64,000 nt of DNA from a virus (IMGVR_UViG_3300033999_000083:1-64000); one strand, 5' to 3'. Positions 26,019 through 48,800 are shown, counted from the first letter of the stretch. Made by a program: numbers and translations. The notes: generated by a model not told the origin, from the letters alone.

Positions 26019-29000
26019 ATATTTAATAGAATATGGTTTAGAAAATAAAGATAAAATAATTGAAATTATATACTGTAATCATTATCTAGATGCAATAGAT
26101 ATAGCTCAATCTAGGGCTATAAAGCTTTTAGATGATATTAAAGAATATAAAAACTTAAAAGAAGAAATCTATAAAACTTACAATTATAATCCTTTTACAC
26201 CGTATGCCTATTATTTATCAACTATTTTAAGTCTTATAACATACAGTGTGGAAAAAATAGACAAAGATCAATCTATAATATATTTAGTATCTAATGAAGC
26301 TAGTTTATTTGATAGTAAATTTAAAACTATATCTTTAGATAGGGCTATACAATTACTCAGTGAGTGTGACATTCTAGGATTAGATTCTGAAACTGAAGGG
26401 TTAGATCCCTATACAAAGGCTCTATTGTTACTTCAGATTGGTAATAAAGAATTTCAAGTGGTATTTGATATAGCTAGCTTTGGTGGTATAATACCTAAGA
26501 AGTTAGTTAATTTTTTAAATAACTATCCAAATACTTTTATATTACAGAATGCTAAATTTGATTTAAAATTCTTATTTAAACAAGGGGTAATACTTAAAAG
26601 AGTATTTGATACTATGCTCTGTGAAATAATTCTTACTAATGGATTAGAATATGAAGGTAGGGATTTAAAGAGTTTGGCAAAGAAATATTGTAATGTAGAA
26701 TTAGATAAATCTGTTAGAGGGGAAATTATAAGTAATGGTTTATCTAGTGCTGTAATAGAATATGGAGCTAATGATGTAAAGTATCTTCCAGAAATAAGAG
26801 AGAAACAATTAATAGAAGTTAATAAATACAATCTTAAAGGTGCAGTAGATTTAGATAATACGTTTGTGGTAGTCTTAGCTTATACTGAATATTGCGGTAT
26901 AAAGTTAGATTATGAAAAATGGAAGATAAAAGTATTAAAAAATATAGAGACTGCTGAGAAATATAAAAAAGAATTAGAAGATTATATTTATAACGATAAA
27001 AAATATGAATACTTTTCTGGAATGGTAGATATGTTCACAGGAAAGCAGGAATGTATTATCAATTGGGATTCTCCAAAACAAGTTACTAAACTTCTTAAAG
27101 AGTATGGTGTTAATACTGAAATAGTAATTAAAGGAGAAAAGAAAGAATCTATAGATTCTAAAGTTTTAGAACCTCAACAAGATCAATTTCCTATTATAAA
27201 GCCATATCTTAAATATAAAGAAATGCAAAAAGAAGTTAGTACTTATGGATATAACTGGAAAAACTATATAAATCCTATTACTGGCAGAATACATACTTCT
27301 TTTACCCAAATACTTAACACAGGGCGTATGTCATCTGGAAATAAGTATGAAAACCTTCCCAATATTCAAAACCTACCTCGAGGAGAAGATACTAGGTCTT
27401 GTTTTATAAGTGAACCAGGAAATTTACTAATTGATGCAGACTATGCAAGCCAAGAACAAATAGTCTTAGCTAACTTCTCTAAAGAACCTAATCTTTTAGA
27501 ATTTTATCATAGAGGTTTTCAAGATATGCACAGCTATGTAGCTTTTTTAATGTATAAAGACATTAGGAAATGCACTGTAGAAGAATTAACTCCTGAAAAA
27601 CTTTCATACGTTAAAGAAGAATACTCAGAGAAAAGAAGAATTGCTAAATCTGCTGGATTTGCGATGAACAAACCATTTTATTTAATTTAGGTGTAACTGA
27701 ACTTAAAAATAAAAAATTTGCCATTAACTACTAATTTATGACAAAACTTTTTATTATATTTGTGTGTAATTAAAATACATAAATATGGATAAAAATAAAA
27801 TAAATGAACTATTAGAAGATTATTCTTCTGGAATGTCTTTAAAAGACATTAAAAGTAAATACCAGACTAGTTCTGATACAATTTATAAATTAGTAGATGC
27901 TAATGGCATAAATAGAAAGAATTATAAAAATTTAGATAAATTTTATGACTTAAATAATCCTGAAACACAATATTGGCTAGGATATATATGTGCAGATGGA
28001 AATATTCAATACGATATTGTTAAAAGAATATATAAAGTATCTTTGTTTAGTAAGGAAGAAGAACCTATCAACAGATTTAAAGAGTATTTTGGAAATATGG
28101 TATGTATTCATAGAAGACCTACAGGTATCATTGAAGCATACATAAATTCTAAAAAATTATGTGAATACTTTATAAATGTTCTAAACATACTTCCTAATAA
28201 ATCTTTAATTCTAGATCCTAATTTAGAATTTACAACAAATTTTATATTAGGATATTTTGATGGAGACGGTTCTATAATGAATAGTTCTGAAACTAGAATT
28301 AGATATGAAACTAAAATAACAAGTGGTAGTAAAACCTTTATCAATAAAATATGTAAAATATTAGATAATAAGGGTATCTACTATATACTTAGAGAAAAAA
28401 GCAGTGCTTTTGACATTAGTATTGAGAGAAAAGAAGAGTCTAAAAAATTTTATAATTGAATTTATTCTGAAAAAGTTTGGTGTTTATCACGAAAATTAAA
28501 TAACTTTGTCGCTCTCTTTGGAAACTTAGAGATAAATAATCGGGAGAATTGCGGGGAAATTAATGGACAATCCGCAGCCGAACTATCTGAATAGCATAAA
28601 AGTAAGATAGGAGGTTCAACGACTAACAATTGAGGAGCTAATCCAATAATATTGACACGAGTACCCGACACCTAAGGAGAAATCTATGGTGAAGATATAG
28701 TCTGAGCTATATAGTAATATATAGAAGTAAGTATAAAGAGACTTACGATAACATAACTGAAATTATGGAGGAAATGGTAGTACTATAGCTAAAAATTGTA
28801 ACATAAGCAAAGCAGAAGGAGATTTTGTATATAATTCATATTTTGAAGCCTTCCCTAAACTCAAAGATTATTTTGATCTAATGTTTAGAAAATCAGCTTA
28901 TTCTGGATATATAGAGTATAATCATGTAACTAAAAGAAAATATTTCTTTAATAAAGAAACCAATGATTATTACAGATATAAAGATATAGTAGAAAAGAAT

Positions 29001-30397
29001 CTACTTTATGAAGAAGACAACCCAAGAGATGTTATATCTAAATATAATAGAGCTAAAAATGAGATACAACGCCTATCTCAAAACTATCCTATAATTGAAT
29101 GGGACTTTATACAGTAATGTATATCGAAAATTGGGTGAATTGCTGGAAACCTAAGTATTATTAAATATAAGGCAATCAGCAGCCAAGCTAGTGAATATCT
29201 TAATGTAACTAGAAGGTTCAGAGACTAGAGGGTGAGTAGATAAACAATAACCTCTCAAAAAGCGCCCGACAACCAATAAATTGGTTGATAATATAGTCCA
29301 ATCTACATCTAAAGATGTAGCAAGATTTTTTAAAAATTATACATTTTATGTGTTGATAATTTTATATCTTTGTATTATTAATAATTTTAAATACAAAGAA
29401 AATGGAAAAAGTAAAAACATGTAAAATTTGTAATTTGAGTGAACCAGAGGTAGAATTTTATAAGAATTCTGGTTCAAAATGTAAAAAATGTAAAAATAGA
29501 GAAGACAGCAGGAGAAGGGCTGAGAAAGCTGGTAGAGAGTATATTCCTAGAGAAAAAGTAGAAGTACCCGAAGAATATAAACTCTGTACTAAGTGTAAAA
29601 GAGTATTACCTATAGATGATTTTTATGTATTAGGGGCAACTAATAAAGACGGTACTAATAGAATATATTCAAGATGTAAAGAATGTGAAAGACAAATTGT
29701 CTTAGAGCATCCTAACAGAAAAGAATATATTGAGAAATCTAATAAAAATAAGTTAGAAAAATCTCAAGAAGACCCTGATTATAGAGATTATCTAAATGAA
29801 ATAAACAAAAAATATTATCATAGTGAAAAAGGTATAATTGCACACATGCTTTATGAGGCTAAGAAAAGAGCTGCTAAGAAGAATTTAGAGTTTGATCTTA
29901 CAGAAGAAGATATTATATTACCTACACACTGTCCTATTTTAGAAACAGAGTTTGTAAAAGGTGATAGTTCTGATTATTCTATGACATATTCTTTAGATAG
30001 AATAGATAACTCTAAGGGATATGTTAAAGGAAATGTAAGAGTAATTTCTATGTTAGCTAACTCAATGAAGAACTCAGCTACACCAGAACAACTAGAAGCA
30101 TTCTCTAGAAACATTTTAAACTACATTAAAAAATCTTAAATGATTCAAGGCTCTTCAGCAGATATAACTAAGTATGCAGGAATACTATTTATGAGAGAGA
30201 TTCTTAAAAGAGATTGGTTTATGAAAGTAAAAATAGTAAATTTTGTTCATGATGAGATACTAGTTGAAGCTCCTAAAGAGATAGCTGAAGAAGTTAAAGA
30301 TGTTTTAGTAAGTTGCATGGAAGAAGCTGGAAAGCCTTTCTGTAAGATATTACCTTTACATGCTGAAGCATTAATAGGAGATCACTGGGTTCATTAA
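26011..30397 (+). CDS. polA: family A DNA polymerase, spliced (exons 26011-27665, 28760-29090, 30143-30397; 746 aa)
   Basis: Exo LGLDSETEG, QNAKFDL; TGRMSS, DADYASQE; splicing restores AKSAGFAI|NYGG and QNYP|IQGSSAD; VHDE. Confidence 0.95.
27666..28759 (+). mobile_element. group I intron 1 of polA, LAGLIDADG ORF in loop L1
   Basis: GAATTGCGGGGAA, AATCCGCAGCCGAA, GTTCAACGACTA, GAAGATATAGTCT; IGS GTCGC (28508) pairs with exon GCGAT. Confidence 0.92.
27785..28594 (+). CDS. LAGLIDADG homing endonuclease with in-frame TGA (Trp) at 28457
   Basis: YWLGYICADG, FILGYFDGDG; readthrough gives KKFYN(W)IYSEKVWCLSRK, a typical C-terminal motif. Confidence 0.85.
29091..30142 (+). mobile_element. group I intron 2 of polA, HNH-type ORF after the core
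   Basis: GAATTGCTGGAAA, AATCAGCAGCCAAG, GTTCAGAGACTA, ATAATATAGTCC; P1 TCCT/GGGA. Confidence 0.92.
29402..30139 (+). CDS. His-Me finger (HNH-like) homing endonuclease with Zn ribbons
   Basis: Multiple CxxC; CPIL, SLDRIDNSKGYVKGNVRVIS..AN.MK. Confidence 0.85.
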   Translation: MEKVKTCKICNLSEPEVEFYKNSGSKCKKCKNREDSRRRAEKAGREYIPREKVEVPEEYKLCTKCKRVLPIDDFYVLGATNKDGTNRIYSRCKECERQIVLEHPNRKEYIEKSNKNKLEKSQEDPDYRDYLNEINKKYYHSEKGIIAHMLYEAKKRAAKKNLEFDLTEEDIILPTHCPILETEFVKGDSSDYSMTYSLDRIDNSKGYVKGNVRVISMLANSMKNSATPEQLEAFSRNILNYIKKS

Positions 30398-30484
30398 GAT
30401 TGTTAGTTCAAAAATATCAATATTTTCATTTTTTAGGTAGATATTTTTTGTAACTTTACAGTCCAATTAAAATTAGAATATGTA

Positions 30485-31708
30485 ATGAATAGAACTGAGA
30501 GACAGAATTTATCAGTTTCAAAATGGATTAAGGCTGGTGGTAGAGGTGTAGTAGTTGCTGCTACAGGGGTGGGTAAAACTATGATAGCATTAATTGCTAT
30601 TAAATCTTTTCTGTCCAAAAATCCAAATAAAGTTGTTAAGATAATAGTTCCTACAGAACCATTAAAACTACAATGGATATCAGAACTTAATAAATACAAT
30701 TTAAATGCTTCAGTAGAAATAATAAATTCAGCTATTAGGAAAGAAGAATATGTAGATTTGTTAATATTAGATGAAATACATAGATATTTCTCTGATACAT
30801 TTGTAAATATTTTTAAAATAAAACATCCAAAACTTATCTTAGGATTGTCTGCAACATTTCATAGGCTAGATGGAAAACAAAAAATAATACAAAAGTATTG
30901 TCCTATTGTGGACACAATATCAATTCAAGAGGCTTTAGAAAATGGGTGGTTATCTAATTATAGGGAATATAAAGTTCTTATAGAAGTAGATGACTATCCT
31001 GTATATCAACAAGCTTCTTCTGATTTTCAAGAAACTTTTAGTATATTTAATTATGATTTTAAACTAGCTATGAAATGTCTTACTAATATATTATATAGAA
31101 GACAATATGGCAAATCTTTAGGAATGTCACCAAAAGATATGGATGCTATAGTATTTACTTGGAATAGGGCTCTTAAGAAAAGAAAAGATTTTGTAATGAA
31201 TCATCCATCTAAAATTGCTATAACAAGAAAAATTCTTGCTTCAAGACCTTTTTCTAAAGCAATAACTTTTTCTGGAACTATATCTCAGTCAGAAAAAATA
31301 GGTTCTGGTTATATAGTAAATTCCAAAAAGACTAAAAAAGAAAATAGAGCAATTATAGAGAAATTCTCTAAATTGTCTTGTGGTATAATAAATACTAGTA
31401 AAGTCTTAAATGAGGGAATAGATATTCCAGGATTAAATTTAGCTGTTATTCTTACTAATTCTTCTTCTCCTACAGAAAAAACTCAAAGAATAGGTAGAGT
31501 TATAAGAAAGGAAGAGGACAAAATAGCTGAAGTATTTACTTTAGTAATTAAAGATACTATTGAAGAAAGATGGTTTGAAAACAGTAGTCAGTTTTCTGAT
31601 TATATAGAAATAACTGAGGAAGAACTTGATTTAGTATTAAATAATTCTGATTTTAGATCAGATAAAATAGAAACTGGAAAAGAGGTAGATGAACTTTTTA
31701 GGAACTAA
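30485..31708 (+). CDS. superfamily 2 DExH helicase
   Basis: ATGVGKT, LLILDEIH, GLSAT, LNEGIDIP, QRIGRVIR. Confidence 0.92.
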   Translation: MNRTERQNLSVSKWIKAGGRGVVVAATGVGKTMIALIAIKSFLSKNPNKVVKIIVPTEPLKLQWISELNKYNLNASVEIINSAIRKEEYVDLLILDEIHRYFSDTFVNIFKIKHPKLILGLSATFHRLDGKQKIIQKYCPIVDTISIQEALENGWLSNYREYKVLIEVDDYPVYQQASSDFQETFSIFNYDFKLAMKCLTNILYRRQYGKSLGMSPKDMDAIVFTWNRALKKRKDFVMNHPSKIAITRKILASRPFSKAITFSGTISQSEKIGSGYIVNSKKTKKENRAIIEKFSKLSCGIINTSKVLNEGIDIPGLNLAVILTNSSSPTEKTQRIGRVIRKEEDKIAEVFTLVIKDTIEERWFENSSQFSDYIEITEEELDLVLNNSDFRSDKIETGKEVDELFRN

Positions 31709-31729
31709 AATAGATAGACATACTAAACC

Positions 31730-31879
31730 ATGACAGTAGAGCGAATGTTAGAATACTTAATGTGTAGAAATATATTATTAAGTAGAGTGGAAATGACTCC
31801 AGAGGAAACAGCTTCTCTGGAAAATAGACTAAGGTTGCTGGAAGATGAATTTGTAGTAGAATACAGATTACCAGCGTAA
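31730..31879 (+). CDS. small hypothetical protein (49 aa)
   Basis: MTVERMLEYL...EYRLPA fills the gap. Confidence 0.55.
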   Translation: MTVERMLEYLMCRNILLSRVEMTPEETASLENRLRLLEDEFVVEYRLPA

Positions 31880-31914
31880 TTCTTAAACAAAGGTAATCTG
31901 AATAAATATTTAAT

Positions 31915-32526
31915 ATGAATTCAGACTTATCCTTTAGAGAGGAAATTCAAATTTATATAGATAGTGGACTTACTCCATCTGAACTATTTATATTAAGATT
32001 GCTATTTTTAGCACAAGATGGAGAATTACAGTTAATAAATAACTATTTGAGTAATACAGTTAATGGAAAAGAAGTTTTCAGAACTGTATTAAGGACATTA
32101 CAAGAAAAGGGTATTATATTAGCTTCTTTTAAACTTCCTAAAGAAGGAGAAGTACTAAAATACACAGACATACCAATTAATAAAAACTTTGTAAAAAAGT
32201 ATATAAAAGAATCTCATCAAGCAGGTAAAGAATTCTTTGGTACTTATCCACCATTTATATATATAAATGGAAAAATGGCCTCTATTAAGAATATAACTAA
32301 AGCAGGTTTATTTAGTATAGATGATTTTTGTTTATATTATAATAAACACATAAAAACGTCATCCATAACTCATGAAAGAATTATGGAAGATTTAAAATAT
32401 GCTATAGAAAACGGTTTAATCCATTATTCTATTATTGAATTTCTAGCTAGTCAAAAATATTTAGAGATAGAATATATTAGAGATTCTGGAGAAGTAGCTG
32501 GATACAAAAATAGTGAGTTATTATAG
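31915..32526 (+). CDS. hypothetical protein preceding the replicative helicase (possible loader or initiator)
   Basis: Position and winged-helix-like N-terminus; function inferred. Confidence 0.6.
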   Translation: MNSDLSFREEIQIYIDSGLTPSELFILRLLFLAQDGELQLINNYLSNTVNGKEVFRTVLRTLQEKGIILASFKLPKEGEVLKYTDIPINKNFVKKYIKESHQAGKEFFGTYPPFIYINGKMASIKNITKAGLFSIDDFCLYYNKHIKTSSITHERIMEDLKYAIENGLIHYSIIEFLASQKYLEIEYIRDSGEVAGYKNSELL

Positions 32527-32527
32527 T

Positions 32528-33589
32528 ATGGTAGTAGAAAGCTTACTAAAACAAATAGAAGATGGTAGGTCTGGAAAGAATATAGGTATTTCTATGGGAT
32601 TACCTGCTATAGATAAAGTTCTTTATGGTATTCAGAGAAGATATATATATACAATAGGAGCCGATACTTCTGGAGGAAAGACAAGTTTTGGATTAGATAT
32701 ATTTGTATATAATCTTATTAAAAATGCTGGAAGTAGAAAAGTTAATATTTTATATTACTCTTTTGAAATGGCTTCTGAAGTATTATATGCAAAATTATTA
32801 TCTAGATATATATATGATGAGTATCATGTAGTTATCACTTTTGAAGAAATATTATCATTAACTAAACCTATTAGTGATGATAAACTCAAAATAGTAAATA
32901 AATGTGTTCCATTTTTAAATAAACTGGAAAATACCCTTACTATATATGATAGACCCTTATCTCCTAATTATATATATGGCACATTAAAAGATTGGCTAAA
33001 AAGATTTGGTACTTTTATTCCTATCAATGAACATAAAGAAGATTATGTAGAAAATGATATAGAAGAATATAAAGTAGCTATAATCGATCATATGGGGTTG
33101 ATTTCAGGGCCAGGAACTAAAAAAGAAAGAATAGATACTGTCGTAGATTATTTTATATATTTTAGAAATAAATGTGGATTAACTGGTGTATTTATTCAGC
33201 AGTTAAATAGAGGACAAAAGTCTATGGACAGGAAGCTTAATGGATACGAGCTTACTCAACTCGATGATTTTAAAGATACTTCAGGAACTACTGATGGCTC
33301 TGAAGTTGTATTAGCTTTATATTATCCATATAGAGAGAAAATACCAAGAGTTGAAGGATATCCTATACAAAATGTCCTTAAAGATAGGTTTAGGCTGGTT
33401 ATGGTACTTAAAAACAGGTTTGGGAAGTCTGATGTTAATAAAGGAGTAGTATTTCATGGTGAAATAGGAATGTTTAGAGAATTACCAAAGCCTGAAGAAA
33501 TTACTGATTATTCAGAATATTTATTATTAACTGGAGCAGATAAATCAACTACAATAGATAACGATGATAGGAATGTTTTTAAATTATAG
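32528..33589 (+). CDS. dnaB: DnaB-like replicative helicase
   Basis: GADTSGGKT, SFEM, IIDH, QQLNR, DFKDT, LKNRFG. Confidence 0.9.
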   Translation: MVVESLLKQIEDGRSGKNIGISMGLPAIDKVLYGIQRRYIYTIGADTSGGKTSFGLDIFVYNLIKNAGSRKVNILYYSFEMASEVLYAKLLSRYIYDEYHVVITFEEILSLTKPISDDKLKIVNKCVPFLNKLENTLTIYDRPLSPNYIYGTLKDWLKRFGTFIPINEHKEDYVENDIEEYKVAIIDHMGLISGPGTKKERIDTVVDYFIYFRNKCGLTGVFIQQLNRGQKSMDRKLNGYELTQLDDFKDTSGTTDGSEVVLALYYPYREKIPRVEGYPIQNVLKDRFRLVMVLKNRFGKSDVNKGVVFHGEIGMFRELPKPEEITDYSEYLLLTGADKSTTIDNDDRNVFKL

Positions 33590-33592
33590 ATA

Positions 33593-35555: not shown

Positions 35556-36605
35556 ATGGAGTTTAAGTATGAAGGAGCTCCAAAGATTACTAAAGAATTC
35601 CTATATAATACGATAGGACAAGAAAGATTGATGGAGCATTATTTAGGAGTCCCTGTAAAAAAGGGACTCTTTATATGCCCATCTTTTTTAAGAAAAGACA
35701 CTAGGCCAACCTGTGCTTTCTATAAAAATAAAAATGGGATTCTTATATTTAAGGATTTTGCAGGAATTTCTGGAGATGCTGCAACTGTAGTTATGAATAT
35801 ATTCCATTGTAGTTATTATCAATCTTTAAGAATAATAGCTAATGATTTTGGATTAATACCATATACTAAACTAGATACTAATCCACCTAAGATACAATAC
35901 TCTGGTAATGTTTTAGAAGAAACTAAACATGCTAATATACAAATAGAAGCAAAAGATTTTTCTGAAAAGGAGTTAAATTGGTGGAAAGAATTTGGTATAT
36001 CTTATGATATATTAAAAAAATTTAGAGTTTATTCCGTAAAGTCTGTATTTTTAAATGGAAATTATTTTACAGGCTCATCAGAAAAAACTTCTATATATGG
36101 ATATTATGGAGGTAAAAGTAAAAATGGAGACGAGTTCTGGAGATTATATTTTCCAACAAAAACTAAATATAGATTTTTAAGTAATTGGAGCTCTTCCATG
36201 TTACAAGGAATAAGACAACTTCCAGTTTCTGGAGAAAATCTTATAATAACTAAATCATTAAAAGATGTCATGACATTATACAGTATAGGGATAAATTCAG
36301 TTGCCCCTATATCTGAAACTATTGTAATAAATAAAGCTAGATTTGAAAAATTACAAAATAGTTTTAATAATATAATATGTTTATATGATAATGATTTAGC
36401 TGGAGTAAAAGGTGCTCAAAAATATAAAAAACTCTATAATACGAGATGTATATTTATAAAAAGAAAATATGCCAAAGATATTAGTGATTTATGGAAAAAA
36501 TCAAACTATGTTCAAAGGTATGAAATAATCAAAGATATGGAATTAATACTACAAGATAAAACTATTCATAATACAAAATATTTTTATATATTCAATGGAA
36601 AATAA
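35556..36605 (+). CDS. DNA primase (Zn-binding + TOPRIM)
   Basis: CP..R.D..PTC.FY...FKDF; IITKSLKDVM; YDND.AG. Confidence 0.88.
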   Translation: MEFKYEGAPKITKEFLYNTIGQERLMEHYLGVPVKKGLFICPSFLRKDTRPTCAFYKNKNGILIFKDFAGISGDAATVVMNIFHCSYYQSLRIIANDFGLIPYTKLDTNPPKIQYSGNVLEETKHANIQIEAKDFSEKELNWWKEFGISYDILKKFRVYSVKSVFLNGNYFTGSSEKTSIYGYYGGKSKNGDEFWRLYFPTKTKYRFLSNWSSSMLQGIRQLPVSGENLIITKSLKDVMTLYSIGINSVAPISETIVINKARFEKLQNSFNNIICLYDNDLAGVKGAQKYKKLYNTRCIFIKRKYAKDISDLWKKSNYVQRYEIIKDMELILQDKTIHNTKYFYIFNGK

Positions 36606-36996
36606 CGAATTAGAGGAAAAACCCAAGAAAAAAGTAAATGGCAGCAAAAATAAGAGAAAAGGAAGTTCTTATGAAAGAAAGATTGTAAATGAATTAAAGG
36701 AAATAACCAGAGATTCTGAACTATGTACATCTAGATCTGAAAGTAAGAGGTTAGATGATGCTAAAATAGATATAGCAGATCCCAATAATGTGTTAGATTT
36801 CTATGTACAATGTAAAAATACTCAATCTAATCCTAGTGTTAAAAAACTTAATGCTGAAGTAGGAAAAAAAGATAAACCACTGGCTATATTCTGAAATGCA
36901 CAAGAAAAAAGAGAAGTAAACAGTGTTAGTGTAGGAGAATATGTTATAATACCAAAAGAGTTATTCTATAAACTATTAAAACTTAAATATGACTAA
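36595..36996 (+). CDS. Holliday junction resolvase (PD-(D/E)xK) with in-frame TGA (Trp) at 36892
   Basis: K.KGSSYER, DIAD, VQCK; readthrough gives PLAIF(W)NAQEK...GEYVIIPKELFYKLL, ending at a TAA that overlaps the next ATG. Confidence 0.85.
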
Positions 36997-37464: not shown

Positions 37465-38492
37465 ATGATAAGTTTAGATAATTTTGCTAAATTAGCGCAT
37501 TATATAAGAGAGAGTATTAATACTAAGGACTTTCTATCAGAAAGATATGATATTGATATCTATCCTTTAACTAAGAATTTAGAAAATGCTTTAGATATAA
37601 CTTTAAGAGAGGTTCTTCCAGATAAATTAGATATATTAGATTATTTCATGGATATGATAATATATACTGATTTAACTGACGATGATATAAAAGAAACATA
37701 TGATTATATATTTAATGAATAACAGAATATGATGAATTTAGATGATTTTAATCGTTTAGTGCGTGCTATAGCAAGTAATGATGATACTAAACAATTTCTG
37801 TATGATAAATATGGTATAGATATTTATCCATTAACAGAAAATTTGGAAATTGCTTTGGATATAGTTCTTAATGAACTTATTCCAAAAGAAAAAATAGACT
37901 ATCTCATCGATATGGTAGCATATGATGATTTGACTGATAGTGAAATAGAGGAAGCATATAATTACATATTTAATGAATAATGAGTTATGATAAGCTTAGA
38001 AAATTTTAACATACTAGTATCTGGTATATTAAGGAGTAACAAACTCTCAAAGAAATTATCTAAAAAATATGGTATAGATTTATATCCTGTGGTTAAAGAT
38101 TTAGATATGGCTCTTTCAGCAGCTATAGATGAAATTATTCCTAAAGATAAGTCTGACTACTTTTATGATATAGTGTATTCTGGTTATTTGAAAGAAGATA
38201 ATATAGAAGACTTATATCATGATATATTTGAAATATAACTATGATTAGTTTAGATAATTTTTCCATTATAGTAAATAATATATTGGAGAATAATAGGCTC
38301 CTAAAAGAGGTTCCAATAGAACATGATGTTGATTTATATTCTGTGTTTAATAATTTTGATGAAGCACTGTCAACTGCTTTAGAAGAAATTATACCAGAAG
38401 ATAAGATAGATTATTTTTACAAAACAGTATATTCAAAATCTATGTCAGAAAATAAAATAGAAGAGTTATATAATAATATATTCAATAAATAA
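37465..38492 (+). CDS. four tandem paralogous acidic proteins (37465-37722, 37729-37980, 37987-38238, 38241-38492)
   Basis: MISL(D/E)NF...Y.IDIYP...L..AL...L.E.IP..K.DY...I.E.Y..IF. Confidence 0.9.
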
Positions 38493-38494
38493 AT

Positions 38495-38986
38495 ATGTTA
38501 AGGATAGCATGTGATATTGACGACTGCATTGCGGATTTTTTGAATCCATATTATAGATTATATGGAAAACCTAAAAAGGGAGATTATGAAATCACCAGAA
38601 ATGTATATAAACTCAGAAATAATAAAAATTTCTGGGAAAGTTTACCAGTATTAGAAACTATGGATTTTGAACCTCATATATATTGTACTAAAAGGGTAAA
38701 TAGTAAAAGATATACTAAGAATTGGTTATTAAAAAATAACTTTCCTGTAAAACCTATATATCAATTATACAATCAAAAAGGAAATAAAGCTACTTTAATT
38801 AAGGGAAGGTGTGATGTGCTGGTAGACGACTCTTATAGTAATGTAATAAAAGCTATAGAATCTGGACTACCAGCATTATTATTAACTAGACCTCATAATA
38901 TCAATATATTAACTCCTTATAGAATAAATTCTTTAAGATATAAAGAAATTGAGGAGAAGTATAATAGATTTTTTAATAATAAATAA
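38495..38986 (+). CDS. 5'(3')-deoxyribonucleotidase-like HAD phosphatase
   Basis: IACDIDDCIADF, DVLVDDS, LLTRPHN. Confidence 0.8.
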   Translation: MLRIACDIDDCIADFLNPYYRLYGKPKKGDYEITRNVYKLRNNKNFWESLPVLETMDFEPHIYCTKRVNSKRYTKNWLLKNNFPVKPIYQLYNQKGNKATLIKGRCDVLVDDSYSNVIKAIESGLPALLLTRPHNINILTPYRINSLRYKEIEEKYNRFFNNK

Positions 38987-38987
38987 T

Positions 38988-39968
38988 ATGACATTTAAAG
39001 AATTAGAGGCCAGATATGGAAAACAAAATAGATCTGAGTGGAGTCAACATCCTAATGGTGGAGGTTGGGTATACAAAAAGGCTGAGGTAGCTGATAGTGC
39101 CTTTGTAGGAGAAAATGCAGTAGTACTTTCAGGTTATGTAGCTATATATGCCAGAATAGAAGATTATGCTGTAATACGTGATAGTGCAAGAATACTTGAT
39201 AACGCTGTTATAAAAGGCAATGCACAAATATTTGATAATGCTACTGTATGTAAAAATGCAGTGGTAAAAGATAATGTTATTATACTTGATCAAGCAATAG
39301 TAACCGATAATGCAGAAGTATCTGGAAATGTTATAATAAAAGATCATAGTGAAATACGTGATTCAGCTAAAGTAATGGATAATGTTGTCATATCAGAAGA
39401 AGCTAACATATATGATAGTGCCAAAGTATTTGGAAATGCAAAAATATCAGGAAGTGCTAAAATATTCGGAAATGCAAAAGTATATGACAATGCTATAGTA
39501 AAAGATAGAGTAAGTATATATGATAATGCAGAAATATATGGCAGTGCTAAAATATATGGCAAAGCTAAAATACTAGATAATTGTAAAGTATATGATGATG
39601 CACAGATATTTGATCATGCTAGATTAAAAAACTTTTCTCAAGTATTTGAAAATGCTAGAGTATTTGGTTTTGCAGTAATATATGATAATGCTAAAATATC
39701 AGGCAATGCTATAGTATATGGTGGTGCTAAGGTATTTAATAAAGCTATTATAACAGGAAGTCCAGAAGTATATGGAGATGCAATGGTTTTTGAAGAAGCA
39801 GTTATAGAAGGTTATGCTAAAATATTTGACCTAGCAAAAATATATGGTAAAGCTAAAGTATCTGATGATGTATTTATATATGAATGTTCTAGAATTTTTG
39901 GTAATACTGTATTATCAGGAGAGTTAAGTATATTTGGAAACACTGAAATACCTAATAAAAAGATATAA
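38988..39968 (+). CDS. hexapeptide-repeat left-handed beta-helix protein
   Basis: HPNGGGWV followed by a long run of xA(K/V)(I/V)(Y/F)(G/D) hexapeptides. Confidence 0.85.
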   Translation: MTFKELEARYGKQNRSEWSQHPNGGGWVYKKAEVADSAFVGENAVVLSGYVAIYARIEDYAVIRDSARILDNAVIKGNAQIFDNATVCKNAVVKDNVIILDQAIVTDNAEVSGNVIIKDHSEIRDSAKVMDNVVISEEANIYDSAKVFGNAKISGSAKIFGNAKVYDNAIVKDRVSIYDNAEIYGSAKIYGKAKILDNCKVYDDAQIFDHARLKNFSQVFENARVFGFAVIYDNAKISGNAIVYGGAKVFNKAIITGSPEVYGDAMVFEEAVIEGYAKIFDLAKIYGKAKVSDDVFIYECSRIFGNTVLSGELSIFGNTEIPNKKI

Positions 39969-39999: not shown

Positions 40000-40998
40000 G
40001 TGAAAATAGATAATGAAATATCTTTAAAAGTAGTTCCGGGTAGTTTACAACTCCTACGAATGAGTGACGAAGAATATTTTTCTGATAAATATTCTGATTA
40101 TATAAGTAATAGTAGGTTAAGCCTTATTAATCCTGAAGAAGATGGTTCTATAGATAAGTTTAAAAAAGGATTAGAGTCAAAATATTCTAGTTCATTAGAA
40201 TTAGGTTCTAGTATCCATTGTATGCTCTTACAACCAGATGAATATGAAATATCTGATATTAGAAAACCATCTGGAAAATTAGGAGTATTTGCAGAGAATG
40301 TTTATCTGTATAGAAAAGAAGGATATAGTATAGAAGACTCAATAAAATTAGCTTCTGAAAAATCTGACTATTATAAGGATAAATTAACAAGTAAAAGATT
40401 AAAAACTGCAATAAAAGAATCTATTGAATTCTATTTAAATAGACTTAGAGTAAAAGAAAGTTTAGATAAATCTACTATATTCTTATCTAAGTCTATGGCT
40501 AGTATATTTGATATTTGTATTTCTAATATAATAAGTAATAATGAATTTATGAGCACATTGTACCCAAAAGGAATTATAAATGATCCTGAAGTATATAATG
40601 AATATGCTATATTAGGAGAAATACAGGCTGGAGACAAAATAGTAAAGGTAAAAGGTAAATTAGATAATTTTACTATTGACCATGAACAAAAAATCATAAC
40701 TCTTAATGATGTAAAATCTACTGGCAAGCCTTTATCTTTTTTTATGGGTAATGAATTTAATGGGATTTATATTCCTGGATCATTTGAGAAATACAGATAT
40801 TATAGACAGTTGGCAATGTATTTATATTTACTAAATAACTGTTTAAATTTAGAAGGATATAAATATAAAGCTAATATTCTAGCTATAGAAACTATTCCAG
40901 AATATAATTCTGGAGTATTTAAAATATCAGATAAATGGATTAAAAAAGGCTTAGAAGAGTTTAAAAATTTATTAATACTTGTTGCCTATGAATGTTGA
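40000..40998 (+). CDS. PD-(D/E)xK exonuclease (RecE/exo VIII-like)
   Basis: YISNS.L, LGS.IH, KGKLD, DVKSTG, YYRQLAMY. Confidence 0.85.
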   Translation: MKIDNEISLKVVPGSLQLLRMSDEEYFSDKYSDYISNSRLSLINPEEDGSIDKFKKGLESKYSSSLELGSSIHCMLLQPDEYEISDIRKPSGKLGVFAENVYLYRKEGYSIEDSIKLASEKSDYYKDKLTSKRLKTAIKESIEFYLNRLRVKESLDKSTIFLSKSMASIFDICISNIISNNEFMSTLYPKGIINDPEVYNEYAILGEIQAGDKIVKVKGKLDNFTIDHEQKIITLNDVKSTGKPLSFFMGNEFNGIYIPGSFEKYRYYRQLAMYLYLLNNCLNLEGYKYKANILAIETIPEYNSGVFKISDKWIKKGLEEFKNLLILVAYEC

Positions 40999-41362
40999 TG
41001 AGATAACTAATGAGATTAATAAGTTATCATATGAGGATAGATTTAAGTTATATGTAAGATGTTTTGGATTTGGGAATTTATTATCTGATGAGTTTGATGA
41101 TAAACTAATTCTTATATCATTAGTAGCCTTAACAGCTAATAAATTAAAAGAGAAAAATCCTAAACTTACTACACTAGATGTATTATTACAAATAACTAAA
41201 GAAAAAGAAGGAACTTCTTTCTATAATGCTTTAGAAAATTTATCTATGTTAGTAGATGATTTATCATATGGTGTTAGTAAATTTAATTCATATGGATTAA
41301 CTGATTCAAAACAAATTATAAATAAAATAAAGGAGTTATTAAATACATGGACTCCATTTTAA
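40979..41362 (+). CDS. hypothetical protein
   Basis: ORF. Confidence 0.65.
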   Translation: MLPMNVDEITNEINKLSYEDRFKLYVRCFGFGNLLSDEFDDKLILISLVALTANKLKEKNPKLTTLDVLLQITKEKEGTSFYNALENLSMLVDDLSYGVSKFNSYGLTDSKQIINKIKELLNTWTPF

Positions 41363-41371
41363 TTTTTAGTT

Positions 41372-42280: not shown

Positions 42281-42473
42281 TATGAGTTTATTATAATAAT
42301 TATTTTTAGATTTATTATATACATATACTATGTTTAGACACTAACCAAGTAAACAGATAAAAATTATCAAAGTTGAGGCAATTTTAGAATTTTAATTGTT
42401 GTAACTTTGTAATACAATTAGATGGAAATACTAGTAGATGGTAAATTAACAATTTTTAATGTAATATGTAAAT

Positions 42474-43055
42474 ATGAAAATTGCAGAATCGCAGGGATAC
42501 AGCAAGAAAAAAGCTTATGAAGAAACAGGATTTGTAATTCCTTTTGAGAAATTAAAAAATGCCACACTCTCCTGGAAAAAGGCAGGTGAGCCACAAGGTG
42601 GTAAAAAATTAGCGGAATTCCTTGAAAACTATTTAAAAGAAAATAGAAATTCAGGGGCTTATATTGTTCTGGAGTCCGCTTCAGAAGATACTCGAGAACG
42701 ACCGTATAAAATTATTAATGAGGCTACTAAAGGTAAGAGAAAAACAACTACTACTTACCAAATAAAAGAAGCTGAATTTAAGGTAAAATACCGCACGGTA
42801 AAAGATGAAAATGGAGAAGATGTAGATGTTCCTGAAGTAACTGTTATATCTACTGGTAAAGTAGAGGGAAAGGCTACTAAGAAAGACCAAGCTTTAGATC
42901 TTATGAAGGAACTTATTAAGGAAAATCGGAAACCTTACGTAATTGAAATCGTTAAAGAGGTGACCGAAGGGCAGAAGTACGCAGCTTATGGAGAATATAC
43001 TCCGTCTGCTTCCGCTAAAATGGGTAAATTTGTTTTTGCCGTAGAAGAGTACTAA
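42474..43055 (+). CDS. hypothetical protein, probably a separate transcription unit
   Basis: TAACTTTG box ~42402 upstream and terminator downstream. Confidence 0.7.
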   Translation: MKIAESQGYSKKKAYEETGFVIPFEKLKNATLSWKKAGEPQGGKKLAEFLENYLKENRNSGAYIVLESASEDTRERPYKIINEATKGKRKTTTTYQIKEAEFKVKYRTVKDENGEDVDVPEVTVISTGKVEGKATKKDQALDLMKELIKENRKPYVIEIVKEVTEGQKYAAYGEYTPSASAKMGKFVFAVEEY

Positions 43056-43065
43056 AAACAATTAC

Positions 43066-43095
43066 AAAGGTGGGGAAACATTCCTCACCTTTTTT
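43066..43095 (+). terminator. intrinsic terminator
   Basis: AAAGGTGGGGAA-ACA-TTCCTCACCTTT plus T run. Confidence 0.8.
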
Positions 43096-43130
43096 AGTCT
43101 AATTTAAGATTTAAACTTATAGATTACATA

Positions 43131-44474
43131 ATGAAAAAAAAGAAAGATTTACGAGAAGTTGAATATAATGCCTCACAGGATGAAGCATTTGACCAAAGGT
43201 CTGTAGGAGAACCAGTTAGAGACGAAGACGGAAAGATAAATGGCTATAGATTTAAGATATATGTTAGAGATTCTAGACCGTTAGAAGGATTTCTTACTAA
43301 CGAAGAAATGGAACTAATATATAGAGAGTACTCTTCTGATGGAGCTAATCTTACTCAGAGGAATATATCTAGACATTTTCCATATACAGTATCTGAATTT
43401 AAAAAGATACTACGTGCTTTTAATGTCACTAAGTCTGTAGTACCATTTCCTCCTCATGTTCTAGAATCTAGAACAACCGAAGAGTTACTAGAATTACATA
43501 TAAAGCAGAAAGAGGTAGATTTTCTTAAGAAGTATGAACAAGATAAAGGAGATTTATATAAGAAAAAATATAATGAACTTTTATTAGAACATCAAAAACT
43601 TAAAGAAGATTTTGAATCTGCAAAATATATTTCCGAAGACATAAATAAAGATAAGTTTAATACTATCAAATTAGATAGCTCTAATGAAACTATTATAGTG
43701 TATTTAAGTGATATGCATATTGGAGCTTATGTGTCTGAAGAAGGAGTATATGATAATAAGTATGATGAGGAAGAAGTTCATAGAAGGTTAAATATAATCC
43801 TAAACAAAATAAATAGTTATAATGGTACATTTAAAAATATAATTATTTTAAATTTAGGAGATGCAATTGATGGATATAATGCACAAACCTCAAGACCTGA
43901 TTCAACTCACATTCTTCCACAAAATATGTCTAATAAAGAACAAGGACAAGTTTTATTAAGACAAATGAGTGGTTTCTTTACAAATTTAAAAGATAATAAT
44001 CCAAATTCTGATATATTCTTTGTATCTGTTGGTCATTCAAATCATGGTGGAGATTTTGAACATAGTATTATTACAGCATTAGCTATAATGCTAGAGCATG
44101 AAGGTATTAGTACATATGTAGCGGTTAGGCCTATAGATCACTTTATTATTGGTGATAAAACTGTTATATTCTTACATGGTAAAGATAATATGGACCAATT
44201 TAAGAATTTTCCCCTTGTACTTAATGACAGAACAGAGTTATACTTTGATGAATATATAAGATATCATAGTTTAGGAGGCGATATTACTGTAGTAAAAGGT
44301 GATTTACATCATAGTGCTACAACGTATGGAAGAGCTTTTAAATACAAATCTGTAAGTAGCTTATTTGGTTCTAGTAATTGGATACATGCTAATTTCGGAT
44401 TTGCTAAATGGGGATGTGACTTTACCCTCATAGATAAAAACGGAGATACATTAGACGGCATAATAAAAGAATGA
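43131..44474 (+). CDS. metallophosphoesterase-domain protein with N-terminal extension
   Basis: LSDMHIG, LGDAIDG, SNHGG, HGKD, GDLH. Confidence 0.85.
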   Translation: MKKKKDLREVEYNASQDEAFDQRSVGEPVRDEDGKINGYRFKIYVRDSRPLEGFLTNEEMELIYREYSSDGANLTQRNISRHFPYTVSEFKKILRAFNVTKSVVPFPPHVLESRTTEELLELHIKQKEVDFLKKYEQDKGDLYKKKYNELLLEHQKLKEDFESAKYISEDINKDKFNTIKLDSSNETIIVYLSDMHIGAYVSEEGVYDNKYDEEEVHRRLNIILNKINSYNGTFKNIIILNLGDAIDGYNAQTSRPDSTHILPQNMSNKEQGQVLLRQMSGFFTNLKDNNPNSDIFFVSVGHSNHGGDFEHSIITALAIMLEHEGISTYVAVRPIDHFIIGDKTVIFLHGKDNMDQFKNFPLVLNDRTELYFDEYIRYHSLGGDITVVKGDLHHSATTYGRAFKYKSVSSLFGSSNWIHANFGFAKWGCDFTLIDKNGDTLDGIIKE

Positions 44475-44477
44475 ATT

Positions 44478-45245
44478 ATGGAAATTAGTGCAGATGCATT
44501 GCTTAAAGGCAAAAGCACAATAATTAAAAATAGAGAATACTTACCTACTAGAGAATATGCAGAACCATTTTTTGAGAAACTTAGTAAAGTAACTGATAAC
44601 TTTATTATACAGGTTAAGGAAGCAGATCAAATGAGTCTTACAAAAGATTCTAAAGATGTGGTATATAATAGAGTATGGATACAAGCTGTATTACCAGATA
44701 AATATACTGTAGATAATCATGCAGAAACATATGGTTTAATATATGGCTTAGATGTTAGGAAACCTGTTGCAAAAATTTATAGAGGTGTATTAAATAAAGC
44801 GTGTTTAAACTTATGTGTATTTGATCCATCTTGGTTAAATATTCAAGAATTAAAACCAGATGAACCTATAAATTATAGTTCTTTAAAAGAGCTTGTTGAA
44901 AAGGAAAATAATATGCATAAAGTATTAGAGGGAATGAAAAATGAATATTTTGTCCGTGAGGATAAAAAGATTCAACTAGGAGAATGGGTAGATTTTACAA
45001 TAAGTCATTATGATGATAAGGGCTTTGATAAAATAAGAATACCTTCGTCTGTTCCTATTGAAGTATATAAAGATTTATATTTAGATTCGGATAGTAAGTA
45101 TTTTGTGCCTGGAGGAATTAATCCTAGTAAATTTCAAGTATATAATGCTTTTACCGACATTATCAGCCACGATAAAAAAGATATAGTTAACATAGCAGAT
45201 AAAACAATACTGTTATCAAAACTATTGAATGTATCAGTTAATTAA
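44478..45245 (+). CDS. hypothetical protein (possibly DUF932-like)
   Basis: ACLNL motif, F.VYNAFT; family assignment tentative. Confidence 0.6.
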   Translation: MEISADALLKGKSTIIKNREYLPTREYAEPFFEKLSKVTDNFIIQVKEADQMSLTKDSKDVVYNRVWIQAVLPDKYTVDNHAETYGLIYGLDVRKPVAKIYRGVLNKACLNLCVFDPSWLNIQELKPDEPINYSSLKELVEKENNMHKVLEGMKNEYFVREDKKIQLGEWVDFTISHYDDKGFDKIRIPSSVPIEVYKDLYLDSDSKYFVPGGINPSKFQVYNAFTDIISHDKKDIVNIADKTILLSKLLNVSVN

Positions 45246-45800
45246 AATTGTGTATGACGACGACTGTAAATTTATTCTAGACATTGTTAAAGACTATAAT
45301 GTAAAGAAGGAAATTTACAGTCTAAGTCATTACAAAGAAAAGAAAAAAGGAATTCCTATTCTTACAAAGAATGGAACTAAAAAAGTTCCACTAGTAGAAT
45401 TAGTGGGAGAAGATTCAGAAAAGGTTATCTGGAGTGAAAGTAACCCTGATTGGAAGAAAGAACTAGATTCATTACTAAAAGATGATAAATAATTAATTAT
45501 AAAATTTTAAAAATGGTAACACTATTTGATGAAAGAGATTTAGTATCATTTGGAGCTTATATGATTTCAGATACAAGAAGAAAATCTATAGAAGAAAATC
45601 CAGATATAAAAAGTCAAGAAGAGATGGATAAAGTATTAAAAATGGTTACTCAATTTGACTTTAATAACTGGCTGACTTTGAAATTAAGATCTGAACAAGA
45701 GGAAAAAGACACAACTTTAGATAATGAAATATCTGATGAAGATATTATAGATGAAGAAGATCATCCTAAAATTGTAAAACTTAATCCTAATAATAATTAA
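45229..45800 (+). CDS. two small proteins (45229-45492 glutaredoxin-fold-like without CxxC; 45513-45800)
   Basis: GTKKVPLV resembles the glutaredoxin cis-Pro loop; upstream of RNR. Confidence 0.55.
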
Positions 45801-48800
45801 TGGAAGATTATTTTAAACATGATGAACTAGCCTATGATGTTTGGAAAGACAAGTATAGACAAGAAGGAGAAAGTTTAGAACAATTTTTTGAAAGACTGGA
45901 AAAAGGGTTTGATAGATCTTTTAGTTATGATAGAAATCTATCAGAGTATGGAAAAAAGAGGCTAAACAATCCATATAGAGAAACCTTACATACTTTATTT
46001 AAAGATTTTAAATATATAATTCCTGGAGGCTCTGTACTATATGGAATAGGTACTGATAAGCCTGTAAGCCTTAGTAATTGCTATGTTCTTAGCACTGAAG
46101 ATTCTATATCAGAAATCTTTGATACAGCTAAATATATGGCTAATATCTATAAAAGAAGAGGAGGAGTTGGAGTAGACATTTCAGTTTTAAGACCTAAAGG
46201 CGCTTCTGTTAATAATGCTGCTAAAACTACTACTGGGATTATACCATTTATGGATTTATTTAGTAATGTAACCAATACAATTGGGCAGAGTGGAAGACGT
46301 AAAACAGATGAAACATTTTTTAATATTGAAAATATACAGAGTAAATATTATGGACGAACAATTTTTAATGGAATGCTTAGAGAAAGGACTAAGTACTAGA
46401 CAAATAGAAGCTCTTCCTGGAGTTAATATAAAGAGAAGTGCTATAAGTTATTGAATTCATAAATATGGTTTAGAAAATGATATGAAATATAAAAAACCTA
46501 TTTACAATGAAAATTACTTTAGTACTATTGACACTAAGGAAAAAGCTTATATTTTAGGATACACTTTAGCAGATGGGTATATTAGTAATTCTGATTTAGT
46601 TTATGGATGTGCTATTGCAGATAAAGAAATACTAGACTTTATAGCCTCAGAAATAGGAGGACAAGTAAGAACTTATACCAAGTTAAATAGAGAATCTAGA
46701 ACATTTCCTAATGCAAAATTGAGTATAGGTAATAGAAAAATAGTAGAAGATATAAATAGGTTATGTAATTCTAAAGAGAATAAAACATTTCCTAGAATAA
46801 GAAAAGATTTACAACCATATATGCTATTAGGTTTTTTTGATGGAGATGGATGTTTAACATTCGGACATAGAAAAGATCGTAATAGATTATGGTATAAAAT
46901 ATGTTTTACAGGTTCTTATAAACTATTATATGCTATACAAAAATTACTTGAAAAGAATAAAGTTGTATCAAGCCTTCACCCTAAAGGTGATGAAAATTGT
47001 TATGTCCTAGAAATGTCATCGAAAGATTCAGTATTAAGAATTTTAAAAGCCATGTATGGTAAAGAAGATTTAATTGTACTGAAAAGAAAATATAATAAAT
47101 ACAATGCGCTGCGTCTTGAATTGGGAGAATTCGGTGAAACTACTATAAATAGTACAATACCGAGCCGAGCTTCAGACCATTCTGAAGAAGGTGTAGAGAC
47201 TACTGGAGGGAAAGAGGATTCCCTTAATAACCAGCTAGAGAACCCAAGTCTTACTATTAAGTAAGATAAGATATAGTCCAAATAAAGGGGCGCATTAATG
47301 ATAACCCTAGATATCAGACATCCTGATTCTCCAGATTTTGCTATTTGTAAAAGGGATTTAACTAAAATAACTGGTGCTAATATATCTTTAAAAGTATCTA
47401 AAGATTTTATATATGCTGTAGAAGGTAATAAAGATTACCTATTAAGATGGCCTGTAGATATAAATATAGATGATATAGATTTAAGTAAATTAGAATATGA
47501 TAAACTATATGAAGTATCTACTAAGAGATATATCAAGAAAATAAAAGCTAAAGAATTATGGGATACTATAATAGAATCTAATTGGCAGTCGGCTGAACCA
47601 GGAATACTTTTCTGGGATAACATTGTAGATTATGATTTAGCTAGTGTATATCCAGAGTATAAACCTATATCAACAAATCCTTGCGGTAGATTTTGCTGCA
47701 AGTAAAAAAATTCGAGAATTGCTGGAAACTTGGGATAGTTATACAACTACAACAAAACTAGAAATGGTATTTGTGAATGTTTGAAAATAGTATAACGTTA
47801 AGTAATCAGCAGCCGAGCTCCTAAGTTATTTATAATATGGAGAAGGTTCACAGACTATGTACGAATCAAAATTAATTTATGAAAACATTTAAAGAAAGGG
47901 CAGAAGAATTAGCCCTATCATGTACAAGAGTTAAAAATAATAATGTTTATGAAACTCTTGCAAAAGAATTTGGAATATGTAAAAGGACAGCTGGAGATAG
48001 GTTTAAGAGCCTATTTGGAATGCCTGTTAGTGAGTTTATTTCTAATAATCTTATTCCTTCAGAAGAAAAGGTAATTGATTGTTTAGTTCAATCAGAAACT
48101 TATAAAGAGTTTTATGATTTAACTGGAATAAATGATAGTGTAAGATTAGCTAATACATTAAAAAAATATTTTGGTACATCAGATTACTATAAATTAAAAG
48201 TATTAGCTTTATCTAAAATACCAAGTAAGAAATATAATCCAACTCCTGAAGATAATGAAGCTATTTTAGTTTCTCAAATGTTAGGAGATGGTTCTATAGA
48301 AAGAGAAAATTCTTTTAAAATAGAACATGGTTATAAACAGTATGAATACTTAAAATTTAAGGTCTCATTATTTAATAAAGCTTACCCTCAAACAAATGGT
48401 TTAGAGAAAATAAGAAAGAGAATATCTAAAGATAATTATGAATCTTATGTTTATAGAACTGGAGAGGTTTTACATAAACAATTATCAAGATTACTACATT
48501 TATCTAAAAAAGATTTAGTAAGTAAATTAACACCTTTTGGAGTTATGCTTTATTTTCTGGATGATGGATATTTTTCTATAAGTAAGGGTAAATATATTAC
48601 TTGGGAATTAGGTTTTAGCACTATAAATACAGAGTTACAAGAAGCTTTGTTTGAGTACTTTAAAACGTATGGATATACTTTTAACATCACTCCTAAAGCT
48701 ATAATCTTACAAAGTAAACCCACTATAATTAAGTTCATAAAAGATTTCTTAGAACCTTTTAAAGATATTATTCCAAAAAGTATGTATTATAAATTTAATT

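Follow-up and report, generated by a model that had tools for sequence, protein, structure and literature searches.

Stop-codon recoding in phages is seen as a translational clock, and the evidence for this view consists mostly of recoded codons that accumulate in late and lysis genes. In the Agate phages, the endonuclease of a group I intron located in an early gene prefers TGA, and the text of Borges et al. (bioRxiv 10.1101/2021.08.26.457843) states that in-frame stops should hold back endonuclease production until late. The Zeta group of crAss-like phages has, according to parts of two reports (PMC7886860, PMC12386605), genomes of 145-192 kb, many group I introns, suppressor tRNAs and TGA used for tryptophan (Trp) mostly in late genes. 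One member, the Lera phage, carries TGA in structural, lysis, terminase, RNA polymerase and helicase genes and has five endonuclease open reading frames (ORFs) (PMC12386605). In phage T4, as summarised in a review, loss of the hairpin that blocks early translation of I-TevI lowers splicing of td. Here we analysed 64,000 nucleotides of viral DNA (IMGVR_UViG_3300033999_000083:1-64000; the window), the first 64 kb of a 93.4-kb contig with a G+C content of 28%, and found that three nuclease-type genes in its replication block, two homing endonuclease ORFs inserted in polA and nrdJ and a resolvase-like gene, each carry one in-frame opal codon, TGA.

The locus resembles these systems in part. As in the Agate phages, homing endonucleases lie within early genes of a TGA-recoded phage and use TGA for Trp. 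In contrast to what the text on Agate phages describes, the phage belongs to a different group, the pattern takes in LAGLIDADG, GIY-YIG and HNH families together with the non-mobile resolvase-like gene, and the endonuclease ORFs overlap the ribozyme core. Gating by an in-frame TGA is already in print for the intron endonuclease of an early gene, so that our interpretation is partly anticipated by that text. Three points are new: the occurrence of the pattern in three endonuclease families of a crAss-like clade, the overlap between endonuclease ORFs and ribozyme cores, and the conserved, apparently relocatable opal codon in the resolvase-like gene. We found no mention in the literature searched of a resolvase-like gene under such control, and the word 'resolvase' is absent from the main text of Borges et al. 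With the Zeta group, as far as parts of its literature describe it, the phage shares a replication block of DnaG-type primase, DnaB and SNF2 helicases and AAA+ ATPase, but those parts do not single out nucleases, which stand out here. As for I-TevI of T4, endonuclease translation is proposed to be restrained to late times. In T4, an RNA hairpin covers the ribosome-binding site of I-TevI and a late promoter is used, whereas here the proposed block is an in-frame opal codon that a suppressor tRNA relieves.

The contig has a completeness rating of about 53%. By its features it is a crAss-like phage of the large, intron-rich, recoded kind, and these features fit the Zeta group of Yutin et al., a placement made from features; the contig is without a terminase. 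GC skew and ORFs divided the contig into a plus-strand block, which extends from position 1 as far as about 56.2 kb, and a minus-strand block that takes up the remainder from 56.7 kb onwards. The plus block encodes PolA, an SNF2/DEAD-type helicase, a DnaB-like helicase, AAA ATPases, a Toprim primase, a class II ribonucleotide reductase (NrdJ), an ATP-dependent ligase and ThyX, and the minus block very large proteins of 1143 to 3021 amino acids (aa), with no PHROG family for seven of the eight late-block proteins searched. When 13 minus-strand ORFs were read with translation table 4, they contained 53 in-frame TGA and 55 TGG codons, and all 13 terminated in TAA or TAG and none in TGA. On the plus strand, TGA was the terminator of 20 of 108 ORFs; nine of the 20 showed the ATGA overlap with the next start that is typical of coupled genes, and in 16 the frame past the TGA stayed open for just 0-25 codons. 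These results show that TGA terminates genes of the plus-strand replication block and encodes Trp in the minus-strand late block. The same division has been reported for such phages (PMC7886860, PMC12386605), and an earlier note, which a model had made from the sequence alone, had mentioned late-gene recoding of stops in some crAss-like phages. Homologs of a 1549-aa late gene were matched in 12 of 27 records searched, with 11-21 in-frame TGAs in G007, G009, G010, G011, G019 and G020, in-frame TAG in G015, G016 and G024, and no in-frame stop in G021, G022 and G026. At aligned Trp columns of relatives, TGA and TGG interchange. A tblastn search of named phages with the late protein returned three records, all unannotated.

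We then scanned the plus strand from 1 to 56400 for TGAs with at least 30 open codons on either side. Only four were obtained, at 28457, 36892, 44472 and 46452. Three of them, at 28457-28459, 36892-36894 and 46452-46454, are the codons on which the earlier note was built, and they were found in frame and with the flanking peptides quoted there. The frame after the TGAs is open for 33-269 codons and, as the note had indicated, the conserved protein continues past each of them; invariant residues occur downstream at aligned sites. Sequencing or assembly error was ruled out, as the TGAs recur in contigs L004 (99% identical) and L142 (100% identical), and a pseudogene reading was rejected on the invariant residues after each TGA and the long open frames. 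The fourth codon, at 44472, was rejected as a read-through TGA: the 704-aa frame 43131-45245, in which Pfam gave no match, is two genes, and its halves match separate places or separate genes in other phages. The upstream gene is metallophosphatase-like, and the ATG of the next (44478) stands one codon past the TGA.

In the five nuclease genes of this genome we counted 3 TGA and 4 TGG, compared with 0 TGA and 167 TGG in the rest of the plus strand (Fisher p = 4e-5, for a gene class set post hoc). The pieces of PolA, the DnaB-like helicase, the Toprim primase, NrdJ, the ligase and ThyX contained only TGG, and the two remaining endonuclease ORFs were free of TGA, one having no Trp codon and the other a single TGG; the earlier note had reported both correctly. 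Collectively, the observation is real and far beyond chance, and the alignments support that full-length conserved products of all three genes would require read-through of TGA. The class of 'DNA-cutting enzymes' that the note had named is nevertheless too broad: all three TGA genes are nuclease-type, but several other nucleases in the block have no TGA.

In the endonuclease ORF of polA intron 1 the TGA is codon 225, and reading it as Trp gives a protein of 269 aa. The corresponding column contains W in 8, Y in 7 and F in 6 of 21 aligned homologs. Downstream of it L234, R236 and K237 of the LSRK block are invariant, and homologs of 266-288 aa extend over this part of the protein. The sequence after the TGA traverses the 5' half of the ribozyme core to a TAG at 28592-28594; by our reading of the Rfam alignment the overlap covers P2 to the 5' strand of P6, and the conserved CCGCAGCC segment of the ribozyme codes for the conserved C-terminal peptide. 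Intron 1 is missing from DNA contigs of runs X5 and X8, in which 27659 is followed directly by 28761, and a contig of run X8 joins across polA intron 2. Furthermore, blastn showed that a 97-99% identical contig (G001) is without all four insertions of the contig studied here (G000), two in polA and two in nrdJ, indicating that turnover of mobile endonucleases between the two is very fast. Compared with window positions 27460-52000, G001 (L116-L118) has three different endonuclease insertions, in polA, the DnaB-like gene and the ligase gene, which encode LAGLIDADG, GIY-YIG and LAGLIDADG proteins with 3, 5 and 3 TGAs, respectively.

The TGA in the endonuclease ORF of nrdJ insertion 1 is codon 35, within the N-terminal helix-turn-helix (HTH), and read-through gives 304 aa. 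Among 18 HTH-bearing homologs its column contains W in 10, Y in 7 and H in 1; another 4 of the 22 homologs were called from a downstream Met and do not cover the region, and homologs of about 300 aa retain the HTH. A close relative (L222) has TGA in the same column, and in L224 a TGA occurs four codons further on. A DNA contig of run X5 joins 46296 to 47292 with 7 letters in between and so lacks this insertion. Rfam returned no group I match at E <= 1 on 45700-49300, and the 3' approximately 150 nucleotides (nt) of the ORF align with conserved blocks of both polA cores; insertion 1 is probably a group I intron. In both TGA-bearing intron ORFs, the TGA lies upstream of the core or core-like blocks. 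Since the 3' ends of the intron ORFs overlap the core or core-like blocks, full-length translation would take ribosomes into the ribozyme.

In the resolvase-like gene, the TGA is codon 100, and the product is 133 aa with read-through and 99 aa otherwise. The earlier note had held that Trp fits at each of the three codons; this was borne out fully here, with W at position 100 in 21 of 21 homologs, and in a looser sense at 28457 and 46452, where the columns have W, another aromatic residue or His. Past the TGA, S112, G114, E115, Y116, K121 and Y125 are invariant, and a GEY..PK..FY block is conserved. The read-through end overlaps the next ATG (36989) by 8 nt, whereas a gap of 94 nt would be left otherwise. 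The gene directly follows the primase-like gene in all ten related contigs.

The identity of this protein was examined by several searches. E27, D54, D59, D62, Q72 and K74 are invariant in 22 resolvase-like sequences and are the putative catalytic residues; the motifs with E27, D54, D59, Q72 and K74 follow each other as in PD-(D/E)XK enzymes. The protein matched PHROG 244, 'RusA-like Holliday junction resolvase', at E 6.4e-9, and Pfam PDDEXK_15 at E 7.8e-5 with 23.1 bits, which is under the cut-off of 27. An AlphaFold model built from the 22 sequences had a pLDDT of 75.5, and its top Foldseek rows were PD-(D/E)XK nucleases, weak matches with E of at least 0.067; against pdb there was no match at E <= 0.001, and a profile search of solved structures with the sequence gave 0 matches at E <= 1. 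A fold search across representatives ranked Hje and Hjc first with Z of 5.0 and 4.8, weak values that could be due to chance. The protein is like Hjc and Hje in its small size, its ER..v..L motif, its acidic pair and its (E/Q)xK motif. It is unlike Hjc in having Gln where Hjc has Glu in the (E/Q)xK motif, and in the weakness of the fold match. It is probably an Hjc-like, junction-resolving nuclease.

The use of TGA by gene class was then determined in ten related contigs. TAA/TAG-bounded frames were read with table 4 and compared all against all, and a Trp codon was counted if its alignment with a homolog of a different genome extended for at least 8 columns in both directions, with G001 omitted as a near copy. 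Homing endonucleases, a class that started in part from ORFs chosen for their TGA and reached 40 ORFs through BLAST links, had 41 TGG and 38 TGA (38/79, 48%), the resolvase-like gene 5 TGG and 12 TGA (12/17, 71%), and the late strand 259 TGG and 446 TGA (446/705, 63%). The other replication-block ORFs had 806 TGG and 30 TGA (at most 30/836), and the contrast with these neighbours is independent of the seeding. From their context, 24 of these 30 TGAs were judged to be artefacts: 13 lie in a W-rich stretch that precedes the start codon of the 24242 family, 6 precede other starts, 4 belong to antisense ORFs and 1 is at an exon end. The six real TGAs were in a helicase (one each in G009 and G017) and in a Phage_lysozyme2 gene (two each in G019 and G010). 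The latter is located on the early strand adjoining the strand switch and has TGA at the Trp of a conserved GLAQW; here late-type codons occur in a lysis-type gene that is not part of the late block.

When 20 TGA-bearing replication-block ORFs were searched against Pfam, 9 were GIY-YIG, 1 NUMOD only, 4 LAGLIDADG, 3 HNH and 1 lysozyme, and 2 had no family. The endonuclease and resolvase-like genes of relatives held up to 6 TGAs at Trp or aromatic columns in full-length frames. Thus, the share of TGA among Trp codons of relatives is similar in the homing endonucleases, the resolvase-like gene and the late genes, but not in the neighbours of the first two. The enrichment by gene class for which the earlier note had proposed to look in relatives is therefore present in three endonuclease families and the resolvase-like gene, with the helicase and the lysozyme as exceptions.

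The position of the opal codon in the resolvase-like gene was followed in further loci. All six lineages with a TGA-recoded late gene have at least one TGA in this gene. In a first set, 60 of 80 loci were examined and 48 had the motif, with TGA at the Trp100 codon in 8 and TGG in 40. A wider set of 160 loci from two collections comprised 84 distinct resolvase-like sequences. In most relatives an additional N-terminal leader was found, made up of Met, a Lys-rich run and an acidic linker with one Trp codon, located 4-17 codons past the ATG in an otherwise variable Lys/Glu leader. We found TGA at this Trp codon in 29 of 29 distinct sequences with a leader and TGG in none; in the contexts inspected it is followed by GTA, GAA, GAG and similar, with no start codon. 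Of these 29 genes, 27 were readable at Trp100 (all but L051 and L303), with TGG in 24 and TGA in 3. TGA at Trp100 in leaderless genes occurs in L004, the near twin of this phage, and in L012, L041, L042 and L043. A tree of 61 sequences placed L004 as sister to the L005 clade with leader TGA (support 99/91) and L012 as sister to L282 with leader TGA (support 97/95). A 13-row clade without any TGA takes in the TAG-recoded G015 and G016. These results suggest that the opal codon is retained and that, when the leader copy is lost, it is replaced at Trp100, with few events behind the pattern. That selection maintains one opal 'lock' on the gene, in the leader or, once this is lost, at Trp100, is a tentative proposal to which we give somewhat less than an even chance.

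Based on these findings, we propose, with a probability of roughly 60%, that synthesis of the intron endonucleases and of the resolvase-like nuclease is gated at TGA by a suppressor tRNA and that splicing is protected in the process. TGA would be decoded by a phage suppressor tRNA(UCA) of the kind found in a complete relative (G019), where a 96-base tRNA(UCA) with a long extra arm (L129:1242-1337, minus strand) lies on the late strand where that block begins, well away from the 24-tRNA array of the early strand. As long as this tRNA is scarce, ribosomes would halt at the three TGAs and, bar leak, the nucleases would be made as truncated products. Once suppression is switched on together with the late genes, full-length endonucleases and nuclease would appear, so that the opal codon would delay or throttle their synthesis. 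The timer reading of the opal codons in nuclease genes, put forward in the earlier note, is a plausible hypothesis. In the introns, the TGA might in addition keep ribosomes off the ribozyme core while the PolA and NrdJ messages must splice; we liken this role to that of the T4 hairpin on I-TevI because loss of the hairpin lowers td splicing. RNA run X16 gave short contigs, none of them spanning an intron joint. Gene 49 of T4, which encodes endonuclease VII, is also translationally regulated.

A number of observations weigh against this gating model. Neither ARAGORN nor Rfam detected a tRNA with anticodon UCA on the 93.4-kb contig, which is about 53% complete. No TGA is present in the DUF3799 PD-(D/E)XK protein (40000-40998), in the metallophosphatase-like gene (43131-44474), in the exonuclease domain of PolA or in two of the endonuclease ORFs. 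The helicase with a true TGA at a Trp column in two relatives is an SNF2/DEAD-type enzyme homologous to 30485-31708, and in one Zeta genome PolB exons carry TGAs, as do intron ORFs, according to parts of Yutin et al. 2021 (PMC7886860). The class counts are not phylogenetically independent, and seeding with TGA-bearing ORFs biases the 48% share of the endonucleases upward. A late-like TGA share would also be expected without a selected timer if these genes were translated late or were weakly selected. In the resolvase-like gene, L030 and L031 have TTA at the leader site and TGG at Trp100, the code of the L030, L031 and L032 phages being not settled from their loci, and in-frame TAG is absent from this gene in two TAG-recoded relatives (L037/L038 and L039).

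In a rival account, AT-biased mutation turns TGG into TGA wherever a small amount of read-through product suffices or selection is weak, for instance in selfish endonucleases or in an enzyme of which only traces are required, and the codon has no regulatory role. It is consistent with the low G+C of the genome (28%), with the fast turnover of endonucleases, G001 having none of the four insertions and others in their place, and with TGA shares of the endonucleases (48%) and the resolvase-like gene (71%) close to the 63% of late genes, which is the outcome expected of neutral use under suppression. However, TGAs flanked by at least 30 open codons on both sides are absent from all other replication-block ORFs of this genome, many of which are small and of unknown function. 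The resolvase-like gene is a further difficulty: TGA at the leader in 29 of 29 sequences versus TGG at Trp100 in 24 of 27 is not expected from drift at saturated synonymous sites, and in two sister pairs the opal codon relocates instead of vanishing. We regard this account as unlikely, if still one to be taken seriously.

Descent could also explain the endonucleases, which may carry TGA because they moved between TGA-recoded phages or originated in the late region. Intron-less alleles are indeed present in DNA of other runs and in G001, endonuclease relatives occur within late genes too (7 TGG, 2 TGA), and close homologs are scattered across many contigs. Such a history leaves unexplained both the resolvase-like gene, which is fixed after the primase-like gene in all ten related contigs, and the host exons a few bases off, which hold TGG only, and we consider it improbable. 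Even less probable, in our judgement, is that the TGAs are real stops and that the short products (224 aa, 99 aa and a 260-aa form restarted at 46482) are functional or the genes decaying. Gene callers did give proteins of 224 aa (P0002) and 260 aa (P0242) for this genome, truncated homologs of the same length exist elsewhere (P0009, P0257, P0278, P0287 and P0289), and TGA terminates 20 neighbouring ORFs. Yet invariant residues lie beyond each TGA in frames open for 33-269 codons, in relatives as many as 6 TGAs fall on Trp or aromatic columns of full-length frames, and it is the 133-aa product that ends in the usual 8-nt overlap and not in a 94-nt gap.

If the opal lock on the resolvase-like gene is true, the gene would be a dedicated read-through switch that makes production of a DNA-debranching nuclease depend on when the suppressor tRNA arrives and hence on the late or packaging phase, and the opals upstream of the ribozyme cores would act likewise on the intron endonucleases and protect splicing. 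Early-type and late-type codon use here sit side by side within one transcriptional block, and the same small gene retains an opal across many lineages, even when the codon must move. The locus thus offers a compact case for asking whether recoding gates single proteins and whether an in-frame stop shields ribozyme folding from ribosomes. For annotation, calling with the standard code shortens these nucleases, as in P0002 and P0242, and calling with table 4 over-extends early genes. Locations of the features are collected in Table 1.

Table 1. Location of features in the window and in related contigs; positions without a contig name are those of the window.
Feature	Location	Strand	Basis or remark
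polA group I intron 1, 1101 nt	27660..28760	+	blastn, G000 vs G001
HTH-LAGLIDADG homing endonuclease ORF, polA intron 1	27785..28594	+	Pfam LAGLIDADG_3, E 7.7e-12
Ribozyme core, polA intron 1	28487..28724	+	Rfam RF00028, 80.2 bits (cut-off 50)
polA group I intron 2	29093..30142	+	Rfam RF00028, 103.4 bits at 29081-29320
Endonuclease VII/HNH-like ORF, polA intron 2, no Trp codon	29402-30139	+	PHROG, E 3e-28 to 3.6e-30
Small PD-(D/E)XK, Hjc-like, probably junction-resolving nuclease	36595..36996	+	homologs, PHROG 244, weak fold matches
Four tandem ORFs, 3' of the resolvase-like gene and a 155-aa ORF	37465-37722, 37729-37980, 37987-38238, 38241-38492	+	
True stop TGA between in-frame genes 43131-44474 and 44478-45245	44472..44474	+	homologs
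nrdJ insertion 1, about 988 nt, ends to within 7 nt	~46304..47291	+	blastn vs G001
HTH-LAGLIDADG homing endonuclease ORF, nrdJ insertion 1	46350..47264	+	Pfam LAGLIDADG_3, E 4.2e-10
nrdJ insertion 2	47691..48843	+	blastn vs G001
LAGLIDADG_2 ORF, nrdJ insertion 2, one TGG, no TGA	47879-48826	+	Pfam, E 1.3e-7
Recoded late ORF, 1549 aa, 15 in-frame TGA	56682..61331	-	table 4 reading and homologs in relatives
Helicase with one in-frame TGA	G009 (L108, 28614-29930); G017 (L136, 15479-16540)		
Phage_lysozyme2 gene with TGA	G019 70686-71423 (L124:10686-11423); G010 59114-59830		

The tRNA content of the contig and its relatives showed some further features. ARAGORN and Rfam together gave two tRNAs on the contig and one doubtful, interrupted tRNA-like stretch. 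With C at position 33, the anticodon loop of the tRNA at 15385-15459 (plus strand) reads CCCAUAA (anticodon CAU), and ARAGORN left this tRNA unnamed. The other, at 16621-16697 (plus strand), was found by Rfam only; we read its anticodon as GAU, and it has a 4-base stand-in for the D-arm and a long extra arm. The tRNA-like stretch is located in the strand-switch gap at 56320-56538 (plus strand) and has a perfect 7-bp acceptor stem and a canonical T arm, with about 130 extra bases in the anticodon region; it was detected by ARAGORN in intron mode only, and Rfam matched the T arm only (E 0.22). The stretch may represent a tRNA that is interrupted or degenerate. The early tRNA array of G019 includes a tRNA(CUA) (L122:4197-4271, plus strand), though its late gene shows TGA only, and G020 has a tRNA with anticodon UUA (L106:1850-1933, plus strand).

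Upstream of the genes discussed here, the stretch 24206-24241 is W-rich and has several TGAs just 5' of the ATG at 24242; it overlaps the end of the preceding ORF and was treated as out-of-gene. Homologs of this stretch are present in G009, G010, G019 and G020, and the G010 copy has a row of Trp codons that includes six TGAs. Among related records, those with terminal repeats measure 172-185 kb, and a 147.5-kb contig of run X1 spans the entire stretch compared. Near-identical DNA was found in runs of nine studies (X1-X16), which by their run labels are subsurface, soil, wastewater and bioreactor metagenomes and not gut, and intron-less alleles co-occur in some of those runs. Downstream of the resolvase-like gene, the four head-to-tail ORFs of 83-85 aa at 37465-38492 (plus strand) appear to be a tandem paralog array, and the 155-aa ORF between the gene and this array had weak aspartyl-protease matches. 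Further along the replication block, 38949-39968 (plus strand) encodes a 339-aa hexapeptide-repeat (left-handed beta-helix) protein with TTG as its start codon.

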